Positions 9,724 through 49,541 of a stretch of 64,000 nucleotides of DNA are shown here, in pieces. Both the position numbers and the translations under genes were made by a program. The notes below the pieces were generated by a model, which was not told the DNA's origin, did no database searches, and saw only the letters and a list, made by a program, of their open reading frames with translations. Source of the DNA: Marispirochaeta sp. (GTDB lineage Bacteria; Spirochaetota; Spirochaetia; JC444; Marispirochaetaceae); assembly GCA_963676835.2 (NCBI GenBank), contig CAXXFF010000004.1, forward strand, positions 288,001 to 352,000, written 5' to 3'. The number at the start of each line of letters is the position of its first letter. Position 1 is the first letter of the stretch.

Positions 9724-9766
9724 TTTTCCTCCTCAAGCAGCAGGCTTTATAAGCGAAAAGCCTGAA

Positions 9767-9778
9767 GAAAGCGCTTTC
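9767..9778. promoter_or_regulatory. LacI-family-like operator upstream of the hexuronate operon
   Basis: Perfect palindrome GAAAGCGCTTTC about 45 bp before the 9723 start. Confidence 0.6.
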
Positions 9779-9848
9779 ATAAGCTGTATCAAGCACAATA
9801 TCATGGATATATAAGCAGAGCAAGAAAAACTCTCCTTCGTCCATTTTC

Positions 9849-12097: not shown

Positions 12098-12206
12098 GAC
12101 AAATCTCCTTTTGCATATTTCCTGTACCTCTAACCATACCAGAGGCTTAAGGTGAGGGCAAATAAAATTGTCTGGATTGAAGAGTCGAAACCACCTCCCC
12201 GGAATA

Positions 12207-13016
12207 TCACCGGAAAAGTGTTTTCATCCTCCAGTGAAGCCGAAGGTCAAAGAGACCCAAGAAAGAAGAGCCTCCAGGTTCCTTCTTTCTGCTCTTTTCA
12301 AGGATCCTGTTCAAAACCTGCCAGCGGTGAATATTCTCCAACGGAACTGGTTCCCGGCCGAAGTAGCCCTTCAGGTAGCTGTCCGCCAGCTTGTACCGGA
12401 ACAGAAAACTTGTCAGAATCCGGGGAAAGATACGGGTGTTGATTGCAGACAGGGATGCTGCAATATCTGCAAGAGGATCTCCGGCAAAAGCCTGTTTCCA
12501 GTCAATAAGAATCAGGCCGTTCTGTCCCTGCAGGATGTGACCGGGATGAAAAGCCCCATGGCACAGCCTGTCATTACGGCTTTTCATAACAAAAAGGAGC
12601 ATATTCTTTTTTATCTTTTCCGGGATGCCCCTGCATTCCTCTATTACAGGCTTATATATACGGTGGGCATCCGGCAGCCCTTCCGAGGGACGAATGTGCA
12701 GATTGCGATGCATCATTCCCAGACTCAAGCCTACTTCCCCGGCATTAATCAGCCGGATATCTTCGCATAGCGATCTTCCCCGGATAAAATCCATGGAAAT
12801 ACTGATTCTCCCCTGATGCTGGCCCGGCGGCTGCATGGCAACAGACTTGTCGTAGACCCGGTTGATAAAAACAGAACGTTCATACTCTTCGGTAGCCGCC
12901 ACAAGACTGTATCCGGGGAGAAACAGCTTTACCGCTTCGGTATCAGAAACCTTAAAAATATCTGCTGTTCTTCCCCGGGCAAGGAGCTCCCACTCTCCGG
13001 GAGATTTTATTTTCAT
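12207..13016 (-). CDS. APH-family phosphotransferase-like protein
   Basis: GRTADIF, LCHGAFHPGHI, LIDW; usual HGD Asp replaced by Ala. Confidence 0.7.
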   Translation of the reverse strand: MKIKSPGEWELLARGRTADIFKVSDTEAVKLFLPGYSLVAATEEYERSVFINRVYDKSVAMQPPGQHQGRISISMDFIRGRSLCEDIRLINAGEVGLSLGMMHRNLHIRPSEGLPDAHRIYKPVIEECRGIPEKIKKNMLLFVMKSRNDRLCHGAFHPGHILQGQNGLILIDWKQAFAGDPLADIAASLSAINTRIFPRILTSFLFRYKLADSYLKGYFGREPVPLENIHRWQVLNRILEKSRKKEPGGSSFLGLFDLRLHWRMKTLFR

Positions 13017-13140
13017 GGGCCAATGGTATCATGGAGGGTAATTTCTAAAAAGCCGATAATTTCCTTAAGCCTCAGGTTGCCATATACGGGCATAAGATAT
13101 AGTGTATACAAAACCTGTTGCTGCAGAAAACGGAGACATC

Positions 13141-14136
13141 ATGCTCGCTGCCTTTATACGTCTTATCGGCCTTGTCCTTACGGGGTACCTGATTTTCAGA
13201 TCTGAAAAAATCCGCAAGAAATTCCTGCCTGTTGCCTCCATGCTCACCCTGAATTTTCTTTTTCCGTCCTATTACATTACCCGCTATGGAATGACCTGGG
13301 ATGCCGCCTTCAGCAAAGGCGCCTATTGGATGCCCATCTTTTTTGTTATGTGCACCCTTACCCTGTTTGTTCAGTACATGATCATCCGGGGTCTTTTGAA
13401 ATACACTAAGATCTTTTCCTCCCTGGCGGATGACCATAAAACCGAGTTTATGCTGCTCTTTGCGGTTCACAATCTGGGATACGTACCCCTGCCTATTTTT
13501 GAGGCCATTGCCCCGCCGGAAATGCTGATTTACCTGTTTACCTACATAATGGCCTACCAGCTGATCTTCTGGAGCCTGGCGGTGAACGTAATTAAACACA
13601 AACCGGGCGAGCCCTTTCAGATGAACTTCCGCTTCAGCGTTCCTTTCTATGGAATACTTATGGGTATTCTTCTGGCTTCAACGGGCCTTTACGACTACAT
13701 CCCCCGGATAATTGCCGCTCCTGTGGAAAAATATTCCCGCTTTGCCATGGATGCCATCATGATTATACTCGGCGGGATCCTTGCTGGAGTCCCCAGGGGC
13801 AACCTCAAAGACCATAAAGAGTTTCTCCCCTTTCTACTCTACCGTCAGGTTCTCTACCCCCTGACGGTTCTGATTGTGTTTGTTGTACTCAGACTGGTTT
13901 TCAAGGGGCCTGCCCTGTTTCCGGGAGCCGGCATTGATATCAGCAACACCTGGCGCTGGCTGCAGCTTTTTCTGGTAATTGAGGCCGCAGTGCCCCCTGC
14001 CACCAACATTATGGTTGCCATCCAGAACTATGGACGGCCGGAACAGCTGGCCTACTCCGGCAACGGAATCATCATCTCCTACCTGGGAGCCGCAGTGAGT
14101 CTGCCGGTATTCGTTATTCTTGCTTACTATGTTTAA
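13141..14136 (+). CDS. AEC (auxin efflux carrier) family transporter
   Basis: NLGYVPLPI, AVPPATN, multiple TM helices. Confidence 0.8.
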   Translation: MLAAFIRLIGLVLTGYLIFRSEKIRKKFLPVASMLTLNFLFPSYYITRYGMTWDAAFSKGAYWMPIFFVMCTLTLFVQYMIIRGLLKYTKIFSSLADDHKTEFMLLFAVHNLGYVPLPIFEAIAPPEMLIYLFTYIMAYQLIFWSLAVNVIKHKPGEPFQMNFRFSVPFYGILMGILLASTGLYDYIPRIIAAPVEKYSRFAMDAIMIILGGILAGVPRGNLKDHKEFLPFLLYRQVLYPLTVLIVFVVLRLVFKGPALFPGAGIDISNTWRWLQLFLVIEAAVPPATNIMVAIQNYGRPEQLAYSGNGIIISYLGAAVSLPVFVILAYYV

Positions 14137-14144
14137 AGCTCTCT

Positions 14145-17100
14145 TTATGGCTTCTGCAAATATCGATTAAGACAGCCGAACAGGGACTTCTCGTTTACCG
14201 GTTTTGCAATAAAGTCATTCATCCCGGCATCATAGCAGCGTTGTATGTCTTCAGGGAAAGTATGGGCGGTTAGAGCAATTATAGTAACCGGTGAAGTCCC
14301 ATGCTGCTCCTCATACTCCCGGATAGCCCGGGCTGCCTCTATCCCGCTCATTTTCGGCATACTCAGATCCATGAGTATCAGACCGTATGATTTCCGGGTA
14401 GCCGCTTCAAATGCTTCCTGACCATTTACCGCAGTATCTATATCAAAGCCTTTTGACACCAGGAGGCTGCGTAGATAGAGCCGGTTTATAGCCTCATCCT
14501 CACACAGGAGTACCGTGTAGGAAAGATTTTCAAGCCGGGGCGGCTCTTCTGCTTCCAGTGGCTCTGCAGCTGGCTGTTCGGGAGCCGGGGCAAGGGGAAT
14601 AAGCAGAGTAAAGCGGGTCCCTTCTTCGGGTTTACTGGCAACCTTAATGCTCCCATGCATACTCTCCACCAGCTGCTTTACAATTGCCAGACCAAGGCCG
14701 ACACCGCGGGTTTTTTTGGTGTACCCCGAGTCCAGCTGCAGAAAACTGTCAAAAATTCTCTCCGCATCCTGCTCAGGAATCCCCACACCGGTATCTATAA
14801 CCTCAATACAGTACATATCAGTGATGTCATCTTTCAGAATGAGCTCAATACCGCCCTGTTCGGTATATTTGACCGCATTGCTGAGAAGATTGGCAACAAT
14901 CTGGATGAGCCGTCCCTCGTCTCCCAGTACCTTATCCGGCAGACTTTTCAGCTCTGAACGATAGCGGTAGGTCAGTCCTTTTTCTTCCGCAAGACTCAAA
15001 AATACTCGATTCAGGTAATCCATAACCGAGGTGAGCTGAAACGGTTCACTTACCAGCTGCAGAGATCCAGCTTGAAGACTCTCAAAATCCAGAAGATCAT
15101 TCACCAGGCGGTTAAGGCTGTTAACCGCAGTTTTTGACTGTTCAATATAGGATCGCTGCTCACCGCTCAGCCGGGTTCCTCCCAGCATGGAGAGCATACC
15201 GAAAATCCCGGTAAGGGGAGTGCGGATTTCATGGCTCATATTGGCCATAAACAGCCCTTTGGCCCGGTTAGCCTCCTCCGCTGCCAGCCTGGCCTCCTCA
15301 ATCTCCCGGGTGCGTTCAATAACCTTCCGGTCCAGCTCTTCGGCCCGCTGTTCCTGCTCGACCAGCTTTGCTTCTGCCAGCAGAGCCTTACGGCTGTTAA
15401 AATAAACGAACATAAGCACAAGCAGCACAAGAAGAACCTGATACACAATTTTCGCAGGAAGAGACCAGTACCATGGGGGAAGAACCCGCACAGAAAGGGA
15501 GATCCCCTCACGGTTCCAGTTGCCCTGACTTCCCGCTCCTGTAACCCGCAGGGTATACAGACCCGGGTCAAGGTTTGTGTAGCGCAGGGGTTCACGCTGA
15601 TCAAGATTAATCCACTGGTCATCGAAACCCTCAAGACGGTAGGCGTAGACATTATGCTCGGGAGCAGAATAATCCAGAGCGGAAAACTCCACAGAGAAAA
15701 ACCGGTCTGTATGGGAAAGCCGCAGCTCCTGTCTTTTTCCTGATTTGATGACCGTAAATGGAGCTGGATCAATTTTTCGCCCCATGACCTCCAGCCCAAC
15801 AATAACCACAGGAGGCACATATCCGGAGCCGCCCTCTTTGGGGTTGGTTACAACGGTAACACCATTTATACCACCCACAAAAACTTCGCCTTCCCGCCCT
15901 TTGGCAAACCCGTTGGTAAGCTCATCGGTGTAGAGCCCGTTGGTGCTTTTAATGGAGCGAATACTTCCCGAATCCGGCTCAAAGACCGATATCCCCCGGT
16001 TGGTACTCAGCCAGAGCTCTCCCGGGCGGTATTCGAGGATTCCGGTAATAAAATTACTTACCAGACCATCCCGGCGGCTGATATAACTGAAATCCCCTGT
16101 CCCGGAATGATAGAGATTCAGCCCGCCGGTTGTCCCGGCCCAGATTCTGCCTTTTGAATCCTCAAAAAGTGCCCGGATATTTGCGTCACTGAGTGTGCGG
16201 GTATCCATATGCTGATGCAGATGGGAAGTAATTCTTCCCCCTTCAGGATCATAGGAGTTAAGACCCCGGTTGGTGCCCAGCCATATGCTGCCGGCAGAAT
16301 CCTCAATAATGACCCGGACAAGATTATCTGAAATACGGTAGACCGCATCCTCATCCGAGGAGAATGAGAGAACCTGTCCGGTCTTTCTGTTTACGGCAAC
16401 AGCGCCGGCACTGTTTGTGCCGAACCACAGCTGACCCCGGGAATCTTCAAGGATGGAAAAGATTGTTCCCTCGGGAATCGGAAAATCAGGATCCCCGGGA
16501 TAGATACGCTGAAAGTCGTCGGTCTCCTTCCGGTAGCGGTTGAGTCCGTCGTTGGTGCCGATCCACAGCTCTCCCCCATGGTCGCGGTAGATCGTATTTA
16601 CAATATCGTTACTGAGACTTGTTTCATCTTCCTGTGAGTAACGGTAATGTTCCATGACGCCAGAATCCGGATGCCAGAGGTGGAGTCCCCCGGAGTAGAC
16701 ACCGATCCAGACAGATCCGTCTTCATTCTGGAGAACCGCTTCAACTTTGCCGGGAGGCAGTGACTCCGGGTCGGCAGGATCGTTGACCAGAAACTCATAG
16801 CGGTTTTTCCACTCCACATACTTGCTTATGCCGCCGCCGTTGGTTCCTATCCAGAGAATCCCCGAGGCATCCTCAAAAATGGAGTAAACCACATCATGCT
16901 TCAGCCCGTCACCGGTAAGGGGAGTCGATTCGGTTATGTGTTCAGTTTTTCCCGTATCCGGATCGAGAACGATAAGCCCGCCGCCCCAGGTTCCTGCCCA
17001 GAGACGCCCCCTGGAATCAACAAAAACCTGATACACATCCTTATAGGGGAGCTCAAATGTTTTTACCCCGCCGCTGCGGGTATCAAAACGGCTCACACCT

Positions 17101-17891: not shown

Positions 17892-19553
17892 CTAGTAGGC
17901 GGCAAAACCGAATATCAGCAGGCCGCTGAAGAAAAACACCAGCACCGTATGCAGATTGGGCATCATTTTGCGCACCGTTGCTGCATAAGCCTTCCCCGCT
18001 CCTGTTTTAAGTCCCAGAAATATGAGTATCCCCGCAGGAATCAGGTACAGAACCGTTGAAAGCTTATTCAGACTCCAGAGAGAGGGAGCGGAAGAGACCT
18101 TTCCCGGCTCAATCAGGAAGGCAATAATCCGGCTGACGGTGCTGCCGAAAACTCCTGCAGCAATACAGAGAACAGCAAGGAAAAACAGGGTAATGCCTTC
18201 CAGAACAGCTTTAGAAGCGGACTCTGTTTCCCTCAGATCCACTGACATCGAAGGTGAAGGCAGATAAATCCTGCTCAGCTTGATAAAGCTTGCCACCGTC
18301 ATAAAACCGGTAAGCCATATAAGGTAATAGGCGGGGGATCCTTTCATGGCATAGCTGATAAAGGCCTTGCTGGCATATCCGTTGAAGGGTGGCATTCCGG
18401 CAATGGAGGCTGCCGCGACAAAGAAGGTGATCGCCGCCAGGGGTATCTCCCTTCCCAGAGGGCGAATGACATACAGGTTTCTGCTTTTTCCACGCTCAAC
18501 CGCCATACCTACGGTGAGAAACAGCAGGCTTTTAAACAGGGCATGATTTACCGCATGAAACACCGAGGCACTGAAGCCGGCAGCAGTACCGGTACCGAAT
18601 ACCGCCAGGATATAGCCCATCTGCGAGACGGAGTGAAATGCAAGCAGCCGTTTGGCATCGGACTGAGCCAGGGCATAGAGCACCGCCGCAAGGGCCGTAA
18701 GGGCACCAATCCAGAGCAGCAGGGAATAGAGGTAGTCGCCGTTAAAGGCAACGAGAATACGCACCATGGCAAAGAATGATATTTTTATCAGCACCCCGGA
18801 AAGGAGAGCAGAAACCGGATGGGGAGCAAAGGCATGGGCTTCCGGCAGCCAGGTATGAAAGGGAATGAAGGCGGTACGGACTCCGATACCGACACAGAGG
18901 GAGGCCAGAGCAAAGTGGACAGCTTTTCCGGAAACTCCTGCTCCGGGACTTTCAAGAGCTTTATGAATCAAATCAAGAGAAAGAACCCCAAGTTCACGGT
19001 AAATAAGAAATACCCCGAAAAGAAAAAAGAGAATGCCCACAGAACTGAGAATCAGATACTTGAATCCCGCCACCAGGGATGCAGGGCTCTGCTCATAGAC
19101 AATAAGCATATAGGCGGCTATGGCTACAATCTCGAAACAGACAAACATGGTAAAGAGATCCCCCGTTAATGCCACCCCTATAAGACCCGCAGCCATGAGG
19201 GACAGGAAAAGGTAGTAGGCGGAGGAAAACTTTTTAGACCCGAAAGAAAACAGTCCGGAAAAAAAAGAGAGCAGGGAAACCAGGATAATGGAGATCCAGG
19301 CAAAGCCGTCAAGCACGAGGCTTATTCCCCATGGTTCAGGCCAGCCGCCCAGGGAGTAGACTATTCTGCCGCCTTCATACACCTCCGGTAAAAAGGGGGC
19401 AGCTATAAGTCCCGGGAGAAGAATTGAAACAATAGAAACAAAGGAGAGGGCTCTTCCGGCGGAGGGGAAGATTTTCCCGAACAGTGCAAGGGCACCGCCG
19501 GTCATGGGGAGAGCTATCATCAGAGGAATCAGAGGAGTCAGTGTTTCACTCAT
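17892..19553 (-). CDS. mrpD: Na+/H+ antiporter subunit D / MbhH-like
   Basis: TGDLFTMFVCFE, PFHTWLPEAH, KRLLAFHSVSQMG. Confidence 0.85.
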   Translation of the reverse strand: MSETLTPLIPLMIALPMTGGALALFGKIFPSAGRALSFVSIVSILLPGLIAAPFLPEVYEGGRIVYSLGGWPEPWGISLVLDGFAWISIILVSLLSFFSGLFSFGSKKFSSAYYLFLSLMAAGLIGVALTGDLFTMFVCFEIVAIAAYMLIVYEQSPASLVAGFKYLILSSVGILFFLFGVFLIYRELGVLSLDLIHKALESPGAGVSGKAVHFALASLCVGIGVRTAFIPFHTWLPEAHAFAPHPVSALLSGVLIKISFFAMVRILVAFNGDYLYSLLLWIGALTALAAVLYALAQSDAKRLLAFHSVSQMGYILAVFGTGTAAGFSASVFHAVNHALFKSLLFLTVGMAVERGKSRNLYVIRPLGREIPLAAITFFVAAASIAGMPPFNGYASKAFISYAMKGSPAYYLIWLTGFMTVASFIKLSRIYLPSPSMSVDLRETESASKAVLEGITLFFLAVLCIAAGVFGSTVSRIIAFLIEPGKVSSAPSLWSLNKLSTVLYLIPAGILIFLGLKTGAGKAYAATVRKMMPNLHTVLVFFFSGLLIFGFAAY

Positions 19554-19893
19554 CAATCTTCCAGGCCTGTAGTTCAATTTCCCTTATATCCAGGGTATTA
19601 AAGCGCTGAAAAAGGGCATCGCACAGGGCCAGGGCCAGGGCGACAATACAGACTCCCACAACAATGGCAGTCAGCATGAGCGCCTGGGGCAAGGGGTCAA
19701 CCATGGCGCTGTGCTCCGCACCGCTTCCCTCAATGGGGGCAATAGTACCGGAGAAAGACCCGTAGTAGAGAAACAGAAGAATAATACCGCTGTTGGCGAT
19801 GCTCAGTGCCATTACCTTCTTAACAATGTTCGGTTTTCGTAAAACTCCCCAGAGTCCCACAAGAAAAACCGCCCCGGTCAGATACCAGATCAC
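19546..19893 (-). CDS. mrpC: Antiporter subunit C
   Basis: DPLPQALMLTAIVVG. Confidence 0.9.
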   Translation of the reverse strand: MIWYLTGAVFLVGLWGVLRKPNIVKKVMALSIANSGIILLFLYYGSFSGTIAPIEGSGAEHSAMVDPLPQALMLTAIVVGVCIVALALALCDALFQRFNTLDIREIELQAWKIDE

Positions 19894-20318
19894 TCTTCCT
19901 CCCGATTATCCTGAAACAGACGTATGCAGATAAGGCTGATACCGGCTCCTACCTTCAGCCCGATGATCACGTTAAAAATCAGAATCAATGAGATTCTGGG
20001 GCCCTCAGAAGCTTCAACGGCCCCGCCAAGCAGCCCGAGAAAGCCGGTACCGTAGAGGGCGCCGGCAAAGCCGATAAGAAGGAGCAACAAAAATCCCACA
20101 GCCTCGATTAGAGAAAGGGCCCGATACGGATACAGTCTCTCCACGGCATCGATCCCCCGGCTTACGCTCATGAGAATCACCGCCGAGGCAATGACCACCC
20201 CGCCCTGGAACCCGCCGCCGGGAGAAAGATGCCCGTATGCGAGAAGATAAAAACCGAAAAGCAGCATAAAGGGGGTCAGCTTCCGGGAAACGAGATCAAG
20301 AATATCACTCTTCTCCAT
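19890..20318 (-). CDS. mrpB: MnhB-domain antiporter subunit
   Basis: GHLSPGGGFQGG. Confidence 0.88.
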   Translation of the reverse strand: MEKSDILDLVSRKLTPFMLLFGFYLLAYGHLSPGGGFQGGVVIASAVILMSVSRGIDAVERLYPYRALSLIEAVGFLLLLLIGFAGALYGTGFLGLLGGAVEASEGPRISLILIFNVIIGLKVGAGISLICIRLFQDNREEE

Positions 20319-20595
20319 GATTCCCCCCGGTAAGATAGAGCACTCCGGAAACAGCAAGGAGAAGCACAATAGTTTCCCCCAGGGTATCGAAAGCCCGGAA
20401 ACCGAGATAGATGGAGGTAACCAGATTCAGGGCTCCGGTCTCCGCCTCTCCGTTGGCCACAATGTAATCCCGGATGGTACTGGCCTCCGGATGAGGACCG
20501 GAAAGGGCTGTAAAAAGAAAAAGCCCCACCAGAAGGACCAGGGCAATCTCAAGCCCTCCCCGAACCAATTTAAAAAGCCGCCGCCCCTGTTTCAT
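20305..20595 (-). CDS. MbhE-like subunit
   Basis: NLVTSIYLGFRAFDTLGE. Confidence 0.85.
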   Translation of the reverse strand: MKQGRRLFKLVRGGLEIALVLLVGLFLFTALSGPHPEASTIRDYIVANGEAETGALNLVTSIYLGFRAFDTLGETIVLLLAVSGVLYLTGGNHGEE

Positions 20596-20825
20596 GTATC
20601 ATCCCTCCGGCCGGTGCGGTGGACAATCCAGATCATAACCAGGGTTCCAACCCCGGTTCCCACAGCGGCTTCCGTCAGGGCTACATCGGGAGCGTGGTAG
20701 AGAAAAAAGACCAGGCAGCTGAGCAGACTGAATACCCCGAGCATAAGCACAGCCGCAAGCATATCCTTCAACTGAAGGGCGATAACTCCGCTTATGAGCA
20801 TGAGAATCAGCAGGATTTCAACCAT
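20592..20825 (-). CDS. MbhD/DUF4040-like subunit
   Basis: APDVALTEAAVG. Confidence 0.85.
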   Translation of the reverse strand: MVEILLILMLISGVIALQLKDMLAAVLMLGVFSLLSCLVFFLYHAPDVALTEAAVGTGVGTLVMIWIVHRTGRRDDT

Positions 20826-21147
20826 CCGACCCTCCCAGTTCCCGCCGTTTCCGGTATCCCCGCTTCCAGGGGATAATACCGTTCTGCCAGGCGAAGCGGG
20901 CAATAATATGGGCGGAAATAGGGTTTGTCACAAAGAAAAATATGGTAATGACCAAAAGCCGGCCGGTCATGGGACCCCATCCGGCAATAAGAAAACAGCC
21001 GATGAGGATGGAAAACACCGAGGTTGTACTGCAGGTGGAAGATGCCTGCAGCCGGGTGTATACATCAGGAAACACCAGAACTCCGATGTTTCCCATAATA
21101 TTAAAGATTACTCCCAGACCGAAAAAAATTGCCGCCGCAATAGTCAC
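20818..21147 (-). CDS. mrpG: Antiporter subunit G
   Basis: FPDVYTRLQAS, TNPISAHIIAR. Confidence 0.9.
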   Translation of the reverse strand: MTIAAAIFFGLGVIFNIMGNIGVLVFPDVYTRLQASSTCSTTSVFSILIGCFLIAGWGPMTGRLLVITIFFFVTNPISAHIIARFAWQNGIIPWKRGYRKRRELGGSDG

Positions 21148-21419
21148 AGGTCCCCTCCCCGGTTTTTCTGCCCGCCGAAGTAACGGGTAAGGGCAAGAAT
21201 TCCGACGAAGCCGAATATATCGTAAACCAGGGCCACATCAAGATAGATTACATGATTACCTGCCACGGAATAGATAACCAGCACCGCAAGGGTCTGGGAG
21301 GCAACCAGATTGAGCCCTGTCATACGGTCAGCCACGGTGGGGCCGATTACCACGCGGATCATACTGATAACGGAGGAGGCAATAAGAAAATAGATCAGAT
21401 AAGTCAGCATCAGAGCCAT
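21144..21419 (-). CDS. mrpF: Antiporter subunit F
   Basis: GPTVADR, YLDVALVY. Confidence 0.9.
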   Translation of the reverse strand: MALMLTYLIYFLIASSVISMIRVVIGPTVADRMTGLNLVASQTLAVLVIYSVAGNHVIYLDVALVYDIFGFVGILALTRYFGGQKNRGGDL

Positions 21420-21922
21420 ACCCTTCGCAGCAGCTTCTCAAAGGTGCCTTTTATAAGATCCCCGGCATAGCGGGAATGGCTGGTCCGGGCATCAAGCCAG
21501 TGAACGATCAGGTGATCATCATCCAGATCCAGGGTAATGGTTCCGGGAGTCAGGGTTATGGAGCTGGTCAGGGCAACCCGGGCAATATCCGTCTTAAGGT
21601 GGGTGCGAAAATGGACAATTCCGGGGTTTATGCGTCCCCGCAGAATATTGAGAAGAACCTTGAAACTGGCCACATACATATTGAAGATGAGTACCAGCAG
21701 AAAGACGACAAACATATGCGGCCGGGGAAGGTGGGCCCGGCGGCCGGCTTCGGACTCTTCAATAAACTGCCGGTAGGTAAGCAGGGAAACCAGCAGACTT
21801 GCAACACCGCCGGCAACAAGCGAACCGGAATCCAGGGACCAGGTAAAGAGCAGCCAGCCTCCGAAAAGAGAGAAAAAGGTAATGAAAAAGCGGACCAGGG
21901 CCCAGCGGGTTTCAAGCCTCAT
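21410..21922 (-). CDS. mrpE: Antiporter subunit E
   Basis: INPGIV, SITLTPGTIT, LIVHWL. Confidence 0.9.
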   Translation of the reverse strand: MRLETRWALVRFFITFFSLFGGWLLFTWSLDSGSLVAGGVASLLVSLLTYRQFIEESEAGRRAHLPRPHMFVVFLLVLIFNMYVASFKVLLNILRGRINPGIVHFRTHLKTDIARVALTSSITLTPGTITLDLDDDHLIVHWLDARTSHSRYAGDLIKGTFEKLLRRVWL

Positions 21923-22380
21923 TTACTCTCCCTGCTGATAAAAGCCGCCATTACCTCCTCTGCTGAGGATGCCGCCAGAAGAGCATTGCAGAAGGTACGG
22001 TCGTGGAGGTACCGGGCGAGCCGGCTGAGAACCTTCAGGTGTCCCGCTTCATCCCCTTCCGGACCAATGAGCAGGAAAAAGAGGGCCACCGGCTGATTAT
22101 CCACGGCATCGAATTTTGCCCCCTCAAGCCTTCTTCCGAAAACAATGCGGGTGTCGGCAACCTGGGAAGTGAAACAGTGGGGAATGGCAATGCCCGAACC
22201 GATGCCGGTGGTATTGATCTTTTCCCGCTTCTTCAAATCCCGCACAATTTCATCGGGCTTTGCAAGCTCGGTACTGCGGGCGAGGATATCAACCAGTTCC
22301 CGTAAAATATCCGGTTTGCGTCTGGACTTCAGAGACAACTCTATACCTTCAATGGTAAGAAGTTCGTGCAGCAGTGCCAT
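21919..22380 (-). CDS. PTS EIIA (Fru/Ntr-type) domain protein
   Basis: RE...TTGIGSGIAIPH, FDAVDNQPV, HLKVLSRLAR. Confidence 0.9.
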   Translation of the reverse strand: MALLHELLTIEGIELSLKSRRKPDILRELVDILARSTELAKPDEIVRDLKKREKINTTGIGSGIAIPHCFTSQVADTRIVFGRRLEGAKFDAVDNQPVALFFLLIGPEGDEAGHLKVLSRLARYLHDRTFCNALLAASSAEEVMAAFISRESK

Positions 22381-22718
22381 CAATCCTCCTCCACCAGTCC
22401 CGCAGCCCAGTCCACAGGCAGGGTAAACAGAATTCCTGTTCCGGGATTGTCCAGACCGCCGCAAATCTCATTCAGCAGACTGTGAAGCCTTGGAACCAGG
22501 GACTCATTCTGAACAACGGAAAAAATGGTTTTGTTATAGGGTTTATTCCCTTTCATGAACTCTTTGAATCCTGCAAAAAGGGGTACCTCATAGGTTAGAA
22601 ACCGGCCCATTCCCTCGGAGTCAAGGATGGTTCCTCCGGAAATTCCTACTTCCGCATATGCTTCCAGTACCTGTTCAAGGAGTTCTTCACGATTCAGTAC
22701 AAACACTACAAGCTTCAT
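22380..22718 (-). CDS. PII-like protein
   Basis: GGTILDSEGMG, GTGILFTLPV. Confidence 0.8.
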   Translation of the reverse strand: MKLVVFVLNREELLEQVLEAYAEVGISGGTILDSEGMGRFLTYEVPLFAGFKEFMKGNKPYNKTIFSVVQNESLVPRLHSLLNEICGGLDNPGTGILFTLPVDWAAGLVEED

Positions 22719-22826
22719 ATCTGCTTTCCCGCGGCCGCCGGCTAAGGGCGGTTTACTGATATGTTTTAAGGTACCCGGTGACTGGAGGGGAGTCAATGGA
22801 ATATTCTGGCCAGAATCAGTTGAGAA

Positions 22827-23282
22827 TCAATTAAGATAGGTACTGAAGCTGTCAAAGATATGATAGCGCCTAAGGTCCGGAAGATTACCGATTACTATCC
22901 GGTTTTCATATTCCACCCAGGCGTGGGCTTCAAAGGGTTCATCCCCCCCCATGGCAACTCCAACTTTAAGCTCAACAGAATAGCCCTGACGGCGGCATAG
23001 AGTATATGCAGTAAAGGCCCGGGGCAGACAGTTGTAGGTTCCGGGAAGCAGCCTCCCCCATATTTCAACCCAGCGGCAGGTATCAACAACACCTGCGTCG
23101 AATCCACCGGCTGGAGACTTCTCCGCCTGCTGCTTTAAACGGCTTACGGCCTGCTGAAAAGGGTATCGGCGGAGAACCAGCCTTGTGCTGAAAAGCATCA
23201 TCCCCGCCTGGAGAAACGCAGCCTTCCCCCTGGAGGGAAGCGCGTAAAAGCGGCGGATTTTATTAAGCAAGCGTATCCACAA
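22827..23282 (-). CDS. Lasso peptide B2-type leader peptidase (start approximate)
   Basis: Transglutaminase-like NCLPRA...GV...AHAWVE; coupled to B1. Confidence 0.9.
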   Translation of the reverse strand: MWIRLLNKIRRFYALPSRGKAAFLQAGMMLFSTRLVLRRYPFQQAVSRLKQQAEKSPAGGFDAGVVDTCRWVEIWGRLLPGTYNCLPRAFTAYTLCRRQGYSVELKVGVAMGGDEPFEAHAWVEYENRIVIGNLPDLRRYHIFDSFSTYLN

Positions 23283-23538
23283 GACCTTCTTCTCCAAGTT
23301 TCTCCGCAAGGGCGAGAATATCCTCCCTGCACTGATCTTCTGCAACATCGAATTCCTGCTGAACCAGGGAACACAGACCTGCAAGGGATTCAGCCTTAAC
23401 AATATTCTTCCAGATAAAAGCTCCTACTTCATTGAGACTGAAATAGAAACCACGTTCAACATGCATGAGCACCATTTCACCGTTTACTTCGGTATGAATA
23501 ACCCCTTCCCGCTGCTGTATCCGTGTATTTAAATCCAT
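23263..23538 (-). CDS. PqqD-family RiPP recognition element (lasso B1)
   Basis: GEMVLM...YFSLNEVGAFIW...EFDV...C..D...L.EEGL. Confidence 0.93.
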   Translation of the reverse strand: MDLNTRIQQREGVIHTEVNGEMVLMHVERGFYFSLNEVGAFIWKNIVKAESLAGLCSLVQQEFDVAEDQCREDILALAEKLGEEGLVDTLA

Positions 23539-23656
23539 AGATCGGCTTCCTTCTTCTTTTTATGATACCCTTGTATTCTAATGAAAAACACAAAAACGTA
23601 AAGCATTGCCCCGGGAGGGCTTCAAGCAATACTGAAGCCATAGTAGTATAAGGGGC

Positions 23657-24868
23657 ATGAAAAAAACAGCAGAAGAAGAAATACTGATCGCACTGACTGC
23701 GGATAGAACCGACAGGGCAGTGTCAATTATAAAAGCCGAAGATCCGGATTACCGGAAACTGCTTCAATTAGCGGCGAAGCACAAACTTCACGGTATTACC
23801 GCCCAGAAACTGCTGGATATTTCCCGGCAGACTGGAATTGAACTGTCCGAAGCCGATATTACCGGAACCCTCCAGGCGGCGGTGGCCATGAATATGCAGC
23901 TGAAAGCCGGGTTTCTTGGTGTAAAGGAGATGCTGAAAAAAGAGCAGGTTGATTTCCTGCTGATAAAAGGCTTTGCCCTGGATCCGTCCCCTTTGAGGGC
24001 AATGAATGATATCGACATCCTTATCCGGGAGGATAAAATTCGTCAGGTTTTTGAGGCAATGACCGCCGGGGGCTACACCTACATGGGCAGTAATGTCATG
24101 ACAAAAGAGGAATTTGCCGACCCCTTTTCCACCCTCCACTGGAACAACCAGTTTCAGTTCAGATCGCCCCGGGTACCGGCGGATATTGAAATTCACACAG
24201 AACTGTTTGAACGGGACAGAATACGGCTGGAACGGCTTGACCGGTTTCTGGACAAGGCTGAGTTTTTCTGGGAAAACCGCAGATACCGGAAAGACCTCGA
24301 CTGTTACATACCGTCTCCGGAAGCAAATCTTGCCCTGCTGACCATCCACTGCACCACAAAACGTTCACCCGCCCACAACACCTATATTCTTCGCCATGCT
24401 TACGACCTGCACGCCCTGCTTGGGGAAAATCGTGACATGGAGAATATAGTGAATATGGAAAGATTTCTCTACCTCTGCAGTGAGTGGAAAATCGGCTACT
24501 ACGCCTATACTGCCTTCCGGCTTACAGCTCTGGCCCTTGATCTGCCGGATATCCTTGAAAAAGCTGAACTGTTGAAACCGCTCTTAACCAGGCGGGAGCT
24601 GATCCTCTCCAACCTGCACCTCAACTGCTACCGGGGCCTGGGAGATGCATCTTTTTTACGGCGGAAACTGTTTGCCCTGTTTATGCCCTTTGCCATAGGG
24701 GGCAGCGTAAAAAAAGGGGTAAGCTGGTACAGGAAAATACTCTTTCCCCCGGCATGGTACCAGGAGGAGCGGTACGGCATAAAAAGAAGTTCTCCCTTCT
24801 TCTTTCTCAGTTATATCTACGGACCCTTTGTTTTTCTGTGGCGGCGACTTACAGGGCTGAGTGAATAA
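23657..24868 (+). CDS. Nucleotidyltransferase-family protein (lasso-cluster type)
   Basis: LLIKG...RAMNDIDILI...IEIH. Confidence 0.85.
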   Translation: MKKTAEEEILIALTADRTDRAVSIIKAEDPDYRKLLQLAAKHKLHGITAQKLLDISRQTGIELSEADITGTLQAAVAMNMQLKAGFLGVKEMLKKEQVDFLLIKGFALDPSPLRAMNDIDILIREDKIRQVFEAMTAGGYTYMGSNVMTKEEFADPFSTLHWNNQFQFRSPRVPADIEIHTELFERDRIRLERLDRFLDKAEFFWENRRYRKDLDCYIPSPEANLALLTIHCTTKRSPAHNTYILRHAYDLHALLGENRDMENIVNMERFLYLCSEWKIGYYAYTAFRLTALALDLPDILEKAELLKPLLTRRELILSNLHLNCYRGLGDASFLRRKLFALFMPFAIGGSVKKGVSWYRKILFPPAWYQEERYGIKRSSPFFFLSYIYGPFVFLWRRLTGLSE

Positions 24869-24907
24869 GAAAAATGTACAGGGAAAAAAGCACAAGTAAA
24901 GAGAGGA

Positions 24908-26734
24908 TCAGGACTCTTTTATCTGACGCAGCTGGGTATGATAGAGCCCTGCATAATAGCCGGCTGCCTGAACAAGCTCATCGTGGGAGCCCTCCTCTAT
25001 TACCCGGCCGCCCCGCATAACATAGATTCGGTCCGCCCGGCGTGCAGCGGCAATCTTGTGGCTTACCAGAAGCAGACTGCCTCCTCCCACAATACCCCTT
25101 ATATTGTCGATAAAATCTGATTCCGAGGGTGGATCAAGCTCCGCGGTGGGCTCATCGAGGATAGTAAAGGGTGCTCCCCGGAAAACGGTACGGGCCAGAG
25201 CTACTTTTTTCCACTGACCTCCGCTCAGTTCCGCACCGTCTTCGAGCCAGCGGCCGAGGACAGTCCCGTATCCGTCGGGTAAAGCCTTTAGAAACTCATG
25301 GGCGCCGACTTTTTCCGCCGCCTCATGCAGGGCAGAATTATTGTCATTGGTTATATCACCGTAGCGGATATTCTCAGCGGCGGTATAGTAGTAGTGGGTA
25401 AAATCCTGAAAGAGCACACCCAGATTTTTACGATACTCCTCAGGCTCCAGGCTGCGCAGATCGGTGCCGTTCAGGCAGACCCTGCCCTCATCGGGTTCAT
25501 AAAACCTGCAGAGCAGGTTGATAAGGGTACTTTTACCTGCACCGTTGTCTCCCACAATGGCAACAAACTCGCCGGGGGCTATTTTGAGTGAAACCCTGTC
25601 GAGAACCTTGTTTGCGGTTCCGGGGTAATGAAAACTGACGGATTCAACCGAGAGACCCCGGCTGTCATCAATAAGCGGTCCATCGCCGCCGGCTTTACCC
25701 TCACCTGTCGCCTCTTTTACCTTTTCAACCTCCACCGGCAGATTCAGAAACTCAAAAACCGCCGACAGGTATAAATTGGTCTCATACAGACGGGCCACGC
25801 CCCGAAGCAGATCGGACATGGCCTGCTGGCCCCGCTGGATAGCCTGAAAGAAAAGTACAAGATTTCCCAGAGAGGTTCCGCTGGTAATGCTTGTGTAGGC
25901 AAAATATCCTAAAAGCCCAATGGTAATGAGCGACTGGAATGCAACGGCAAAGAATTCACCCGCCGCCCGGCGGCCGGTAAGAGACAGAAGCTCTCTGCGG
26001 AGCCTGATTCTCCAGGAAGAGGCCTTCTCCTGAAAATGGTCCTGCAGACCGTTGATACGGTTTTCCCGTACATTGGTTTTATCTGTAAGCAGCCAGTTAA
26101 GATAAAAAACATGCCGTTCCGAGGAGGTCTGCTCCATTCGCCAGGCATAGATCCTGGCAGACGAGGAGAGAAGCACCAGAGCCACCGGCAGTGCAGAAAC
26201 TGCCAGAAGCAGAATGGTAAACCAGGGAAGAGTGTAAATAAGCAGCCCCGCAATACCGGCAATGGAGACAGCGGAGCTTATGAGGCCGGTTACAATATCT
26301 ACAATCTGGGCAGGACGGTAGGGCGCTTCCGCCTGAGCCCGGTGAAGCTTGTCGTGAAACTCGGGCACCTCATAATAGGCAAGATCGAGCTCCACCGACT
26401 TCTGTTGAACCACACCCTGCATATAGTCGCTTAATACCTGCCCCTGCACCTGACGGAGAAAATTGCCCCCGGTGCGGAACAGGGCGGACAAAAGGAGCGC
26501 TGCCCCGGTAAGCATAATTACCGGCAGAATCTCCGCAAAGCCGCCGCCGGCCGCCAGGGTATCCACCATGAGTTTTACCGCATAGAGGGGAACAAGGGGG
26601 ACAATCCCCTGAAATGTCATAACAGTAACTGTAAGCAGGCTTAAGCCGGGGCTGCTTTTCCAGAGCAGCCCGATACCACGGGAAAATACGCCGGCCCCTT
26701 TCCTGAGGCGCAGTATGCGGCCGGAAAGGTTCAC
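24908..26734 (-). CDS. ABC exporter, fused permease/ATPase
   Basis: GDNGAGKST, LSGGQW, LDEPT; N-terminal TM domain. Confidence 0.93.
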   Translation of the reverse strand: MNLSGRILRLRKGAGVFSRGIGLLWKSSPGLSLLTVTVMTFQGIVPLVPLYAVKLMVDTLAAGGGFAEILPVIMLTGAALLLSALFRTGGNFLRQVQGQVLSDYMQGVVQQKSVELDLAYYEVPEFHDKLHRAQAEAPYRPAQIVDIVTGLISSAVSIAGIAGLLIYTLPWFTILLLAVSALPVALVLLSSSARIYAWRMEQTSSERHVFYLNWLLTDKTNVRENRINGLQDHFQEKASSWRIRLRRELLSLTGRRAAGEFFAVAFQSLITIGLLGYFAYTSITSGTSLGNLVLFFQAIQRGQQAMSDLLRGVARLYETNLYLSAVFEFLNLPVEVEKVKEATGEGKAGGDGPLIDDSRGLSVESVSFHYPGTANKVLDRVSLKIAPGEFVAIVGDNGAGKSTLINLLCRFYEPDEGRVCLNGTDLRSLEPEEYRKNLGVLFQDFTHYYYTAAENIRYGDITNDNNSALHEAAEKVGAHEFLKALPDGYGTVLGRWLEDGAELSGGQWKKVALARTVFRGAPFTILDEPTAELDPPSESDFIDNIRGIVGGGSLLLVSHKIAAARRADRIYVMRGGRVIEEGSHDELVQAAGYYAGLYHTQLRQIKES

Positions 26735-27735
26735 CGTACCACCTGAGAGCGGCCCGGGGCGGCATTAAGAAACGCTATAACATCAGGCAATCGTTCATAG
26801 CCTTCGGGAATGTTCAAAATCTGAACAGGAACCTGAGCCGCCACGGCACCTATCATGCCCAGACGTTTCTGTCCCCGGTCTACCGCATCCAGAAGCTCCG
26901 CTGCAAAGGCATGTCGAACCAGGGACATAACCCCTTCTGCTGCTCCTACAGGAGTTACAGAAGGTTGATCAGAGCCGTTTCGGCTGAGAAAATAGATTGC
27001 AGTAAGAGGTAGGTTATGAGAATAGAATGATCCTAACTGCTCACTGTGCTGCGGAACCTTCAGCCCCCGTTGGCCCGCCAGGCTTATAGAACCTACAGGA
27101 ATTTTAAGCTTTTCGAAGCCCGGGTGTATTTTTCCGTAATTATCCGGATTTCCCCCTAAAATTTTCAGCTGATGAGAAAAGAGCTTCATCTGGGGAAATC
27201 CCGGAAAAGCTGTAACTCCATCAGGTCCCACGGACAAAGCCAGAATATCATCAGTTACCAGGGGATACCCCCCTGCGACACAGGCGGTAGCCAGGGTGGT
27301 TTTACCGGTGCCGGAATCTGCAATAAAAGCGACGCAGCCGTCTCCTGCCTTGACGGCCGATGCATGCAGCATAAGAATACCCTGCCGCTCCAGCCAGAAG
27401 GACATAACATTGCCCACAAAGAAGATCTCAATAAGATATTCAATATCCGGCAGCAGAGGATGGGCGGTAATCTCATTACCCCGCATTTCAAATCCGCAGA
27501 CCCCGGTTATGTAGAGGGTCTCGCAGGTTTCGGAAAGAAAAAGCTCCACCCGGCCCCCCTCATAGTTTTCCACCGGGGCACGGACCCCTTCCGGAGTGTA
27601 CTCCGGGTTTACGGGCAGCACGGAAAAAGAGAGATCTACTTCGCCCCGGGGCTCCTCCGGAGGCAGGAGATTGAAAGTAAAGGGAAAGGATGAAGCGAGA
27701 TGCGCTCCGTAAAGCATGTAACGGGATTCATTCAT
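26731..27735 (-). CDS. HPr-kinase-like peptide kinase (lasso kinase type)
   Basis: LHASAV, SGTGKTT, LVTDD. Confidence 0.85.
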   Translation of the reverse strand: MNESRYMLYGAHLASSFPFTFNLLPPEEPRGEVDLSFSVLPVNPEYTPEGVRAPVENYEGGRVELFLSETCETLYITGVCGFEMRGNEITAHPLLPDIEYLIEIFFVGNVMSFWLERQGILMLHASAVKAGDGCVAFIADSGTGKTTLATACVAGGYPLVTDDILALSVGPDGVTAFPGFPQMKLFSHQLKILGGNPDNYGKIHPGFEKLKIPVGSISLAGQRGLKVPQHSEQLGSFYSHNLPLTAIYFLSRNGSDQPSVTPVGAAEGVMSLVRHAFAAELLDAVDRGQKRLGMIGAVAAQVPVQILNIPEGYERLPDVIAFLNAAPGRSQVVR

Positions 27736-28933
27736 GTACAAGAAGCCCCTGTTCCTTCAAAGATGCGGCAAAATGCTCCAGATCCTTTCGAATCTCTTCC
27801 GGATCGGCATCGTAGAGGCCCGCGAGCTCTTCCGCGGCCTTTACGGTACTCTCTGCCCGAAGCAGTATATCCCACATATCCGCCGCTGTGTCTTCCAGAA
27901 GGAAACAATCTCTTCCCTGCTCTTCTCCGTTTTCGGTAAAGTCAGCCACAACAATGCGGTTTTCACCGATCCTGGCGGCCACAACTTCAGGGGCGGCAGT
28001 CCAGCCGGAAGGGCTGTCCTCATGCAGCTGAACAGTCCCCCGGTCTTCTCCTTCAAAACGGTTTCTAAAACAGCGCTGCGGAGGATAGAGGCGAAAGGCA
28101 AGTTCAATTTCGTCGGTAACGGAATTAATAAAGACACTTTCCGGTTCGCTCCAGGAGAAAACTATTGTTTTTGGATGACCTGTCCAGAGAACCTTTTCAC
28201 CTGATTTACTCTCCCATCCCGATTTCCACTGGGCATAGGTTTCTCCGTACATCTCCGGAGCCTGGTCCTGGTACTCCATGGCCGCCGTAATGGGAAAAGA
28301 CTGATGAACTCCACCTTTACCGTTACAAAGAGATTCCGGTGCAGCCAGAACCGCAACATGAACCTCCCGGTGGGGCTCCTGCTTCTGTATGGATTCGACT
28401 GTCTGGCGGATTCTGAAGCCCGAGAAAACCGCATCGTCCACAAGCAGAATTGGACGCTTTACCGCTTCCCCTCCCCTGCTCCCGGTTTCGGTCAATTTCC
28501 CCAGGGCATAGAGCAGCAGGCCGCAGACGATATATCCACCCCGGGGAACAGGTCTAATCTCAAACTGAGCCAGCCTCTCACGGCCGTATGTCCGGATAAG
28601 TTTCTCCGCAAGATCTTCCGCAAAATTTTCCGCCTCAGGGTAGCTGATATAGAGTGAATCTTTCAAAGTCTGGGGAATCTGGGTCGCCAGGCGGGCAATC
28701 AGTTCAACCCGCTCAGGAGATAAATCACCAAAAAGATAGATTCCTTCCTGCTCTTTTTTTTCTACATCATGGTGCAAACGAAGCACCATATATGCATCAC
28801 TCAGCCGGGAGTCCCGGTTCAGAGTATCTCCAAGTATCCGGAGAGCAGCGGCAGCATCTGAAGCGCCGGTCAGTTTTAAAAGGGATGAAGAATCTGTAGT
28901 TGTCGAGAATAGTTTAACTGCTTTAAATGACAT
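27728..28933 (-). CDS. PRTase-like domain fused to C-terminal PqqD/RRE domain
   Basis: VPRGG and ILLVDDAVFSG (PRPP-loop-like); C-terminal FLLEDTAADMW...LYDADPEEIRKDL..F...LKEQGLL. Confidence 0.7.
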   Translation of the reverse strand: MSFKAVKLFSTTTDSSSLLKLTGASDAAAALRILGDTLNRDSRLSDAYMVLRLHHDVEKKEQEGIYLFGDLSPERVELIARLATQIPQTLKDSLYISYPEAENFAEDLAEKLIRTYGRERLAQFEIRPVPRGGYIVCGLLLYALGKLTETGSRGGEAVKRPILLVDDAVFSGFRIRQTVESIQKQEPHREVHVAVLAAPESLCNGKGGVHQSFPITAAMEYQDQAPEMYGETYAQWKSGWESKSGEKVLWTGHPKTIVFSWSEPESVFINSVTDEIELAFRLYPPQRCFRNRFEGEDRGTVQLHEDSPSGWTAAPEVVAARIGENRIVVADFTENGEEQGRDCFLLEDTAADMWDILLRAESTVKAAEELAGLYDADPEEIRKDLEHFAASLKEQGLLVHE

Positions 28934-28966
28934 AAAAAACCGGGCACCATGTTACCACGGGCCCGG
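28934..28966 (-). terminator. Intrinsic terminator-like hairpin after the precursor genes
   Basis: Minus strand CCGGGCCCGTG-GTAA-CATGGTGCCCGG followed by TTTTTT. Confidence 0.7.
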
Positions 28967-29012
28967 GACCTCTATTCGTTAAGATTAATAGAAAAATAGT
29001 ATATCAGAGATA

Positions 29013-29198
29013 CTAAATAATACTGCTGGTTGTTTTAATTGGCGATCCGCCTTCTGAAACCGTACCGGCGCCGCTTCCTTCACTGCTGCTTCCCTTTCCA
29101 CTGCCGAAAAGCGCCTCGATAATGCCTGACTGCGTAAGATCGGCTACACTACCCCACTCTTTAATCTGCGGTTTCTGGTATTGCTTTTTTGCCTGCAT
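29013..29198 (-). CDS. RiPP precursor A1 (61 aa, lasso-type leader)
   Basis: MQAKKQYQKPQIKEWGSVADLTQ|SGIIEALFGSGKGSSSEGSGAGTVSEGGSPIKTTSSII; RBS AGGGAG. Confidence 0.88.
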   Translation of the reverse strand: MQAKKQYQKPQIKEWGSVADLTQSGIIEALFGSGKGSSSEGSGAGTVSEGGSPIKTTSSII

Positions 29199-29231
29199 AT
29201 TATTCTCCCTGAGATATATTCTCAATAAATA

Positions 29232-29260
29232 AGTGTATACCCCAATTTTACAGCGGTCAA
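29232..29260 (-). promoter_or_regulatory. Sigma70-like promoter of precursor A1
   Basis: TTGACC-N17-TACACT. Confidence 0.6.
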
Positions 29261-29345
29261 TGTTAAGATGAGAAAATAACCGGTATTTTTCAACTAAAGA
29301 AGGAGTTCCGTCTGTCTACCTGGTAAACAGACGGATAGCAGTAAA

Positions 29346-29489
29346 TTAATACTCGCCCCGGGGACCGACGATCTCGATCACATTCAATGACCCGTTACCG
29401 CCGACTCTTTCTGTCAGCTTGGTAACTGTTCCCCACTGCTTTACTTCAGGCTTGGTGTAGGTTCGTTTTTCCTGTTTTTCGTTCTGCAT
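29346..29489 (-). CDS. RiPP precursor A2 (47 aa, absent from ORF track)
   Basis: Hand translation MQNEKQEKRTYTKPEVKQWGTVTKLTE|RVGGNGSLNVIEIVGPRGEY*; RBS AGGAG; leader matches A1. Confidence 0.88.
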   Translation of the reverse strand: MQNEKQEKRTYTKPEVKQWGTVTKLTERVGGNGSLNVIEIVGPRGEY

Positions 29490-48323: not shown

Positions 48324-48376
48324 TTGAGTAGAATTAAAACGATCAAAACCAAATACATACTTGTTAGATAAATTGT

Positions 48377-48547
48377 ATATAACAAGCAATTGGAGCAGAC
48401 ATGGCTACTGTCATGGTTTGTGCAGTAACGGAAACCAGGTGAATGTAAGTTTCAGGTGATTCCGAGCTGAATCCGTAGTAAAATGGGATAGAGTTACAGC
48501 ACAAACCACGCCAGCTTAACGCCACGCAGCTCAATTGGATGTTATAT
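48377..48547 (+). repeat. attC site 1 (171 bp)
   Basis: ATATAAC-N5-ATTGGAGC...GCTCAAT-N5-GTTATAT. Confidence 0.9.
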
Positions 48548-48606
48548 TTACTTTCAGAAAATTTAGTAGTAAAATATCGGTTGTAAGGTAATAAGGGTTA
48601 GCCGAT

Positions 48607-49536: not shown

Positions 49537-49541
49537 AAAAA

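Follow-up and report, generated by a model that had tools for sequence, protein, structure and literature searches.

In a 64,000-nucleotide stretch of DNA from the spirochaete Marispirochaeta sp. (NCBI GenBank assembly GCA_963676835.2, contig CAXXFF010000004.1, positions 288,001 to 352,000 of the forward strand; hereafter "the window"), we examined a gene cluster of the lasso peptide type in which the first gene after the precursors encodes a 401-residue fusion protein. The fusion joins a core with the fold of a type I phosphoribosyltransferase (PRTase) to a recognition element from the pathways of ribosomally made, post-translationally modified peptides (RiPPs), the RiPP recognition element (RRE). 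Fusion to an RRE marks an enzyme as acting on leader-bound precursors; this architecture therefore points to a tailoring step that is undescribed for lasso-type peptides. In lasso-type clusters, members of the fusion family are almost constantly paired with a peptide kinase whose catalytic residues are intact. Judging from sequence, structure model and gene context, we tentatively propose a leader-guided tailoring role for the fusion in a lasso-derived, phosphorylated RiPP pathway, in which it would transfer a phosphoribosyl group to the core peptide, working with the kinase.

Fold and ligand site of the fusion protein

The fusion is encoded on the minus strand, and the plus-strand reading of the same interval is riddled with stop codons. 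A sequence-only reading of the gene had described a PRTase-like motif together with a C-terminal PqqD-like domain, and had proposed structure prediction of both domains as a check. We located both motifs of the PRTase-like part, VPRGG at residues 129–133 and ILLVDDAVFSG at residues 162–172, and structure searches with a predicted model recovered both folds. The C-terminal part of the protein also scores above the cut-off of the Pfam model for PqqD (PF05402; residues 342–398, E = 5.6e-9, 36.6 bits, cut-off 23.4), and a comparison with NCBIfam gave a weak lasso PqqD match and nothing else.

The structure model was made with AlphaFold2 from an alignment of 150 sequences, and has a predicted local distance difference test score (pLDDT) of 93.7 and a predicted template modelling score (pTM) of 0.91; a model made from a 4-sequence alignment had a pLDDT of 50.9 and was discarded in its favour. 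Comparison of the 150-sequence model with 48,161 chains using VIA-align returned 29 chains with Z ≥ 8, nearly all of them PRTases or phosphoribosyl pyrophosphate (PRPP) synthetases that align to model residues ~88–299. The top match to the core was 5vog (Z 10.4, root-mean-square deviation [rmsd] 4.3, 141 residues aligned); other matches included PyrR (Z 9.7), HGPRTs (Z 9.1–9.6), OPRTs and UPRTs, such that the PRTases covered a range of Z 8–10.4. Residues 309–401 matched two lasso B1 proteins, TfuB1 (6jx3_B; Z 10.1, rmsd 2.0, 85 residues aligned) and TbiB1 (5v1u_A; Z 9.8, rmsd 1.8, 84 residues aligned). A Foldseek search with the model gave 60 matches with E ≤ 0.001, and those listed were all PRTases. 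Consistent with these fold searches, a profile of the fusion family compared with the PDB identified TbiB1 (5v1u, E = 8.1e-17), TfuB1 (6jx3, E = 2.6e-11) and a purine PRTase (1vdm, E = 2.2e-4). Used as a single-sequence PDB query, residues 91–300 gave E = 0.3 at best, to an OPRT and over the PRPP motif; the case for the PRTase fold therefore comes from the family profile and the fold searches, and not from the single-sequence search. These comparisons show that the C-terminal domain is an RRE of the lasso B1 type, and that the centre of the modelled protein has a type I PRTase fold that keeps the pyrophosphate (PPi) loop, the acidic pair that binds Mg and ribose, and a phosphate-binding [ST]-G-x-R loop. 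The N-terminal domain of the model (residues 1–90) is weakly conserved, and is shorter or absent in some relatives (L012, L008 and L011 begin at profile positions 69–92).

We measured conservation of the ligand site in 150 family representatives that are 22–59% identical to the fusion protein. PPi-loop residues R131, G132 and G133 were each found in all 149 sequences with a residue at that place, and the acidic pair D166/D167 was found in every representative. In the phosphate loop, a Ser or Thr at position 171 was invariant (150/150), G172 was present in 149 of 150 sequences, and R174 in 144 of 150; D223 was present in 141 of 149. A conserved block, F259/W261/E263/P264, is located where the acceptor-binding "hood" sits in PRTases (W261, 150/150; E263, 143/150; P264, 147/150). 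We also aligned the core to PRTases encoded by the same genome, namely Apt, PyrE, Upp and two HGPRT-like proteins. The PPi loop PRGG lines up with SLRGG, EARG and MLRGA of these proteins, and ILLVDDAVFSG lines up with ILLVDDLIATG, ILLVDDIYDTG and VVMVDDLITTG, motifs from among the Apt, PyrE and HGPRT-like proteins. Pseudo-enzymes normally lose ligand-site residues of this kind. In 6-oxopurine PRTases, an Asp activates the base; the fusion has Leu, Ile or Phe at that position, which would fit an acceptor other than a purine. Across the aligned family, the ligand site is under strong constraint, and the strict conservation of all PRPP-contacting elements points to a ribose-phosphate ligand for the PRTase-fold domain and to a probable catalytic role.

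Family distribution and pairing with a peptide kinase

The fusion is not a one-off. An exhaustive profile search identified 641 cluster representatives with E ≤ 0.001 and 353 with E ≤ 1e-30, indicating a widespread family, most members of which are 370–420 amino acids long and align end to end. This overturned the result of a word-index homolog search, which gave just four proteins and would have suggested that the family is rare. The fetched loci span at least six phyla, and the family is sparse within each phylum: a full-length match was found in one of 401 genomes from the window's own phylum (this genome), and in two of 401 from the phylum of genome G401. In a Pfam scan of 100 members, 99 matched PqqD, 29 matched Pribosyltran with E ≤ 0.01 (best E = 7.1e-9) and 18 matched PRTase-CE. 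Annotation in the ESM Atlas reflects the PqqD part only, the names assigned automatically being "PqqD family peptide modification chaperone" or "hypothetical protein". One family member, P0006 (526 amino acids), has two PqqD stretches and a Pribosyltran score of 35.6 bits, above the Pfam threshold. The fusion homolog of L011 has no PqqD match in Pfam and was considered as an RRE-less variant; this was ruled out, since the family profile aligns through position 387.

We compared the window with eight genome loci, nine metagenome loci and locus L046, all annotated with Pfam, NCBIfam, phmmer and hmmsearch. Genes downstream of the fusion were counted for the 19 gene copies with about 1 kb or more of downstream sequence; L015, which ends at the gene, was left out. 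An HprK-like kinase gene is directly downstream of the fusion gene in 15 of the 19 copies (the window, L005–L010, L012, L013 and L016–L021). The kinase has 324 homologs with E ≤ 0.001, and residues H124, G144, K145, D162 and D163 were invariant in 70 sequences. These residues match the His-Lys-Asp-Asp motif that mutagenesis has identified as essential in lasso kinases (PMC9266682, PMC10368454), indicating that the catalytic residues are intact. Prediction of a complex between the fusion and the kinase, made with two alignments and without controls, gave a score of 0.00 with both, and counts neither for nor against binding.

Twelve loci have a lasso-cyclase-type Asn_synthase gene, in most cases directly upstream of the fusion gene with the precursor between them, and all three full-length cyclase genes that were scanned against NCBIfam scored best with the lasso cyclase model NF033535. 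Cores in the cyclase-bearing relatives have Asp or Glu at position 7–9, and in loci with both cyclase and fusion (L006, L007, L009, L013, L014, L017 and L018) they follow the pattern x-G-x-T-x-P-G-x-D and then G-S-[VI]-x-P-P-G. The presence of a lasso cyclase alongside such cores indicates that the fusion family is older than the loss of the cyclase, and that it has a tailoring role in these loci. Precursors of fusion loci have G, W, T, N, A, V, R, Y or I as their last residue, and none ends in Ser; the internal Ser and Thr residues of the lasso cores are candidate modification sites. Cognate lasso-type leaders are adjacent in 10 of 19 loci, and a motif scan found none in the remaining nine. 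A canonical B1 gene accompanies the fusion in the window, L005, L010, L012 and L019, suggesting that the fusion brings an additional RRE that serves its own step.

Three of the comparison loci have further features of gene order. Two metagenome contigs carry the lasso cluster as an insertion between truA and trpF, beside asd and fimV (L014, 5408–12500; L017, 5366–10111). L014 contains two tandem copies of precursor, fusion and cyclase, with no kinase within the sequence examined. In L046, a 399-amino-acid open reading frame (ORF; 28–1227), judged by eye to be transposase-like, is directly downstream of the fusion gene at the place expected for the kinase.

Proposed phosphoribosyl transfer and alternative roles

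In the mechanism that we tentatively favour, the fused RRE would dock the YxxP...T(-2) leader of the two precursors in the window, A1 and A2, the PRTase-fold domain would bind PRPP or a closely related ribose-phosphate ligand, and a phosphoribosyl group would be transferred onto the core peptide. The most plausible acceptor would be a phospho-Ser made by the kinase, with Ser-O-P-ribose-5-P as the product (+212 Da in addition to +80 Da); a different nucleophile in the core would be an alternative acceptor. Kinases of the paeninodin type phosphorylate the C-terminal Ser of the precursor, and PsmN adds hexoses onto the phosphate of that phospho-Ser in pseudomycoidin (PMC8498205, PMC9266682), a reaction to which transfer of phosphoribosyl onto phospho-Ser would be analogous. 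BsfK phosphorylates Ser3 (PMC10368454), and LppK polyphosphorylates Ser3 (PMC13381572). Leader removal by B1 and B2 would come next, followed by export through the ABC transporter. With no cyclase in the window, the product is probably linear, and we expect that it is probably a phosphorylated and further decorated peptide. We also considered His as a purine-like acceptor, given the THPG and PPGH motifs in some cores; this was ruled out as a general explanation, since the cores of A1, A2 and L005 contain no His.

If the PRTase-fold domain is catalytic, PRPP chemistry would join the RiPP repertoire. The sequence-only reading had noted that such chemistry is not known from characterised RiPPs, and our literature search likewise found no paper in the searchable library that connects lasso peptides or RiPPs to a PRTase or to PRPP. 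The term "phosphoribosyl" has no occurrence in PMC13381572 or PMC13352647. A paper from 2026 (PMC12912966) reports a RiPP that is ADP-ribosylated. In its boldest form, which we regard as possible and yet doubtful, the proposal is that the fusion is the first PRTase-fold enzyme in RiPP biosynthesis, a leader-guided enzyme that would use PRPP to place ribose-5-phosphate on phospho-Ser made by the kinase, or directly on a side chain, of lasso and lasso-derived linear peptides, with the spirochaete clusters as a cyclase-less linear class around the PRTase-kinase pair. This would be a phosphodiester-linked phosphoribosyl decoration, which is not known on any ribosomal peptide.

Several observations weigh against phosphoribosyl transfer by the fusion. 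Judged on sequence alone, the PRTase half of the protein is sub-threshold: the Pfam Pribosyltran model (PF00156) matches residues 162–199 with E = 2.8e-4 and 20.7 bits, below its cut-off of 26.3, and 71 of the 100 relatives scanned have no Pribosyltran match with E ≤ 0.01. The fusion lacks the flexible catalytic loop of type I PRTases: its loop Arg and Asp pair are 35 residues apart, versus 60 in Apt and 64 in an HGPRT-like protein of the same genome; at residues 145–160, the model has a short loop and a helix of lower confidence (block pLDDT 80 and 69). The final Thr of the T-G-x-T phosphate loop is replaced by the Arg described above. A weak search for longer fused forms (712–2030 amino acids), including a protein that combines PRTase, RRE and kinase, found none. 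Lastly, four of the 19 copies (L011, L014a, L014b and L046) have no kinase gene directly downstream. In L011, the kinase gene is one gene upstream, with a sulfotransferase gene in between, and the next genes downstream in L014a and L014b are trpF and a cyclase gene, respectively.

The missing loop bears on a second explanation, in which the fusion is a non-catalytic adaptor or pseudo-enzyme. The fused RRE would present the precursor to the HprK-like kinase, and the PRTase fold would act as a scaffold, or as a sensor of PRPP, PPi, a nucleotide or ppGpp that tunes phosphorylation. A precedent that also counts against phosphoribosyl transfer is BsfB1, a discrete RRE that strongly stimulates BsfK both in vivo and in vitro (PMC10368454); since a discrete RRE alone can stimulate a lasso kinase, an adaptor role would suffice to explain the pairing of fusion and kinase. 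The overlap of the fusion and kinase genes and the position of the kinase directly downstream in 15 of 19 copies are consistent with this role, as is the identity of the best structural match, 5vog, a PRTase-fold protein that was solved with ppGpp; PyrR and PurR are also among the matches. By contrast, neither the Asp pair nor the RGG of the PPi loop varies, conservation of the hood motif is high, the stand-alone B1 of the cluster could already serve the kinase, and at least two copies (L014a and L046) have no kinase nearby within the sequence examined. In view of the missing flexible loop and of BsfB1, an adaptor or sensor role is the main rival explanation, and we consider it possible, without expecting it. 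Were this so, the adaptor would explain how kinases whose target is not a C-terminal Ser are directed to internal positions.

A third explanation is that the PRTase-fold domain edits the (poly)phosphate chain made by the kinase, either with a Ser-O-diphosphate in place of PPi in a pyrophosphorolysis-type reaction with a nucleotide, or by trimming or limiting polyphosphorylation. Such a reaction is not known from PRTases, and the sequence features do not separate it from the forward reaction. In favour of this explanation, the PPi-binding loop is invariant, and lasso kinases and those of linear polyphosphorylated peptides (LPP) place as many as four phosphates on a single Ser (PMC9266682, PMC13381572). 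We consider phosphate editing unlikely. The suggestion of the sequence-only reading that the fusion is the class-defining enzyme of a new RiPP class in a cyclase-less cluster, which we regard as very improbable, is favoured by the absence of Asn_synthase from the window, the assignment of the genome's two full-length Asn_synthase genes as AsnB, the lack of an acidic residue at core positions 7–9 of A1 and A2 and the lack of a cyclase in the syntenic L005, and it fails for the family as a whole because 12 loci have a lasso-cyclase-type gene and cores with Asp or Glu at position 7–9 and the kinase follows the fusion in 15 of 19 copies, indicating a component of a tailoring module; a grain of truth is left for the cyclase-less spirochaete cluster.

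The Marispirochaeta cluster and comparison with known systems

The elements of the cluster are listed in Table 1. Along the minus strand, the order is A1, a hairpin, A2, a hairpin with a run of six U residues (U6), the fusion gene, the kinase gene and the ABC exporter gene; the NTP_transf_5 gene is on the opposite strand, and B1 and B2 follow. A1 and A2 thus lie directly upstream of the fusion, and the cluster has a stand-alone B1, both as the sequence-only reading had described.

Table 1. Elements of the lasso-type cluster and parts of the fusion gene, with positions in the window.
Feature	Position	Strand	Description
Precursor A1, 47 aa	29346..29489	-	Leader YTKPEVKQWGTVTKLT-E; predicted core RVGGNGSLNVIEIVGPRGEY
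Hairpin after A1	29307-29335	-	Stable
Precursor A2, 61 aa	29013..29198	-	Leader YQKPQIKEWGSVADLT-Q; core SGIIEALFGSGKGSSSEGSGAGTVSEGGSPIKTTSSII; ortholog in L005
Hairpin and U6 run before the fusion ATG	28934..28966	-	GC-rich hairpin 28940-28966; U6 28934-28939 abuts the ATG
PRTase-RRE fusion gene	27728..28933	-	401 aa; N-terminal alpha/beta domain, PRTase-fold core and lasso-B1-type RRE
N-terminal alpha/beta domain	28664..28933	-	Residues 1-90; small; predicted from the secondary structure of the model
PRTase-fold core	28034..28663	-	Residues 91-300
PPi-loop PRGG	28535-28546	-	Within the PRTase-fold core
PRPP-type motif ILLVDDAVFSGFR	28412-28450	-	Within the PRTase-fold core
Hood motif FSWSEPE	28139-28159	-	Within the PRTase-fold core
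C-terminal RRE, lasso B1 / PqqD type	27731..28009	-	Residues 309-401
HprK-like peptide kinase	26731..27735	-	Weak matches to HprK_rel_A (TIGR04352, E 3.1e-6) and PEPCK_ATP
MsbA-like ABC exporter	24908..26734	-	ABC_tran E 3.8e-32; MsbA_lipidA E 4e-71, below the cut-off of that model
NTP_transf_5 nucleotidyltransferase-like protein	23657..24868	+	PF14907 E 4.5e-21; annotation type as PsmN, BsfN and LppN
Stand-alone B1 (RRE)	23263..23538	-	PqqD E 8.9e-20; lasso_PqqD_Bac E 1.4e-18, 66.8 bits, below cut-off 80
B2 leader peptidase, transglutaminase-like	22827..23402	-	NF033537 lasso_biosyn_B2 E 7.9e-23, 81.3 bits (cut-off 33); Transglut_core3 E 2.2e-22

Both precursors have the lasso-type leader motif YxxPx[LVI] with Thr at position -2 (YTKPEV...LTE in A1, YQKPQI...LTQ in A2). 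A2 scores above the cut-off of the NCBIfam model NF033521, lasso_leader_L3 (E = 7.7e-5, 22.5 bits, cut-off 19), and A1 has a weak match to lasso_cyano (E = 0.053). In the A1 core, acidic residues begin with E12, and the A2 core has E5 and then E18, such that neither has Asp or Glu at positions 7–9. The 88-nt stretch with the hairpin ahead of the fusion gene has a folding energy of -27.5 kcal/mol (z -3.72 relative to 200 shuffled sequences, one of which was equally good), and a comparison by eye found a matching hairpin and T-run ahead of the ATG in L005, where the stem has base changes. This hairpin and U6 run are probably a read-through attenuator that sets the ratio of precursor to enzyme. 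The start of the kinase gene overlaps the stop of the fusion gene, suggesting translational coupling, and the start of the exporter gene overlaps the kinase stop by 4 nt. The stand-alone B1 is 27% identical to the fused RRE over 55 amino acids. L005 is a syntenic Marispirochaeta counterpart of the cluster, flanks included (9721–15984, corresponding to 22827–29489 of the window), with 58% identity for the fusion and about 71% for the kinase.

No match to Asn_synthase (PF00733) was found within the 64-kb window, and no cyclase was found in L005 or L011 within the sequence examined. The AsnB assignment covers the two full-length Asn_synthase genes of the genome, which score 498 and 441 bits with TIGR01536 (cut-off 267) and 230 and 208 bits with NF033535 (cut-off 525); a third match, at the start of contig 2, is weak and partial (23.3 bits). 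No signal peptidase was found among the scanned cluster ORFs, which include B2 and do not cover a 193-amino-acid ORF opposite the NTP_transf_5 gene (23768–24349).

Directly downstream of the cluster, as in L005, are an operon for an Mrp-type Na+/H+ antiporter, a gene similar to EIIA(Ntr) of the phosphotransferase system, and a P-II-like gene (17892–21922 and 21919–22796). Two stretches of the window have a low GC content (47500–54000 and 56000–62000; 0.32–0.44, relative to ~0.52 elsewhere). The first of these encodes a Fic/DOC protein (48607–49536) and a protein with an NADase translocation domain (51949–52857), contains a repeated peptide-coding stretch at 49724 and 51170, and is probably acquired DNA. 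No tRNA gene was found in the window.

The two halves of the fusion resemble different groups of proteins. With type I PRTases (XGPRT, HGPRT, Apt and OPRT; PF00156), it has in common the core fold, the RGG of the PPi loop, the hydrophobic strand followed by the Asp pair, and the [ST]-G of the phosphate loop; it differs from them in having no flexible catalytic loop, in the Arg that replaces the last Thr of the phosphate loop, in the attached peptide-binding domain and in its acceptor, which would be a peptide and not a nucleobase. Its C-terminal 93 residues have the winged-helix fold, with three strands and three helices, of lasso B1 proteins (TbiB1, TfuB1 and BsfB1), the leaders beside it carry YxxP and Thr(-2), and BsfB1 likewise serves a kinase (PMC10368454). 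Lasso B1 proteins are discrete RREs, whereas the RRE of the fusion is attached to a 300-residue PRTase-fold module and coexists with a separate canonical B1.

At the level of the cluster, the lasso-type leader, B1, B2, kinase with a His-Lys-Asp-Asp motif, NTP_transf_5 protein and ABC exporter are like those of the paeninodin, pseudomycoidin and Bsf clusters (PMC8498205, PMC9266682, PMC10368454), relative to which the cluster in the window adds a PRTase-fold protein, a type that those papers do not mention, has no cyclase, and has precursors that do not end in Ser. The clusters for LPP (Popov et al., 2026; PMC13381572) likewise combine an RRE, a kinase of the HprK-like type, an NTP transferase and an exporter similar to MsbA with no cyclase, and the product of the window cluster would, like an LPP, be expected to be linear and phosphorylated. 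LPP clusters come from Bacillota, and have a SipW-type signal peptidase I and a YxxPxVLxHQxIxFETxxS leader (PMC13381572). By contrast, the cluster in the window uses B1 and B2 and a lasso-type leader, belongs to a spirochaete, and has the PRTase-RRE fusion in addition. It resembles a version of the linear polyphosphorylated peptide clusters of Bacillota in which B1 and B2 do the processing, and so extends the idea of cyclase-less, linear, phosphorylated peptides beyond Bacillota and the SipW-type peptidase.

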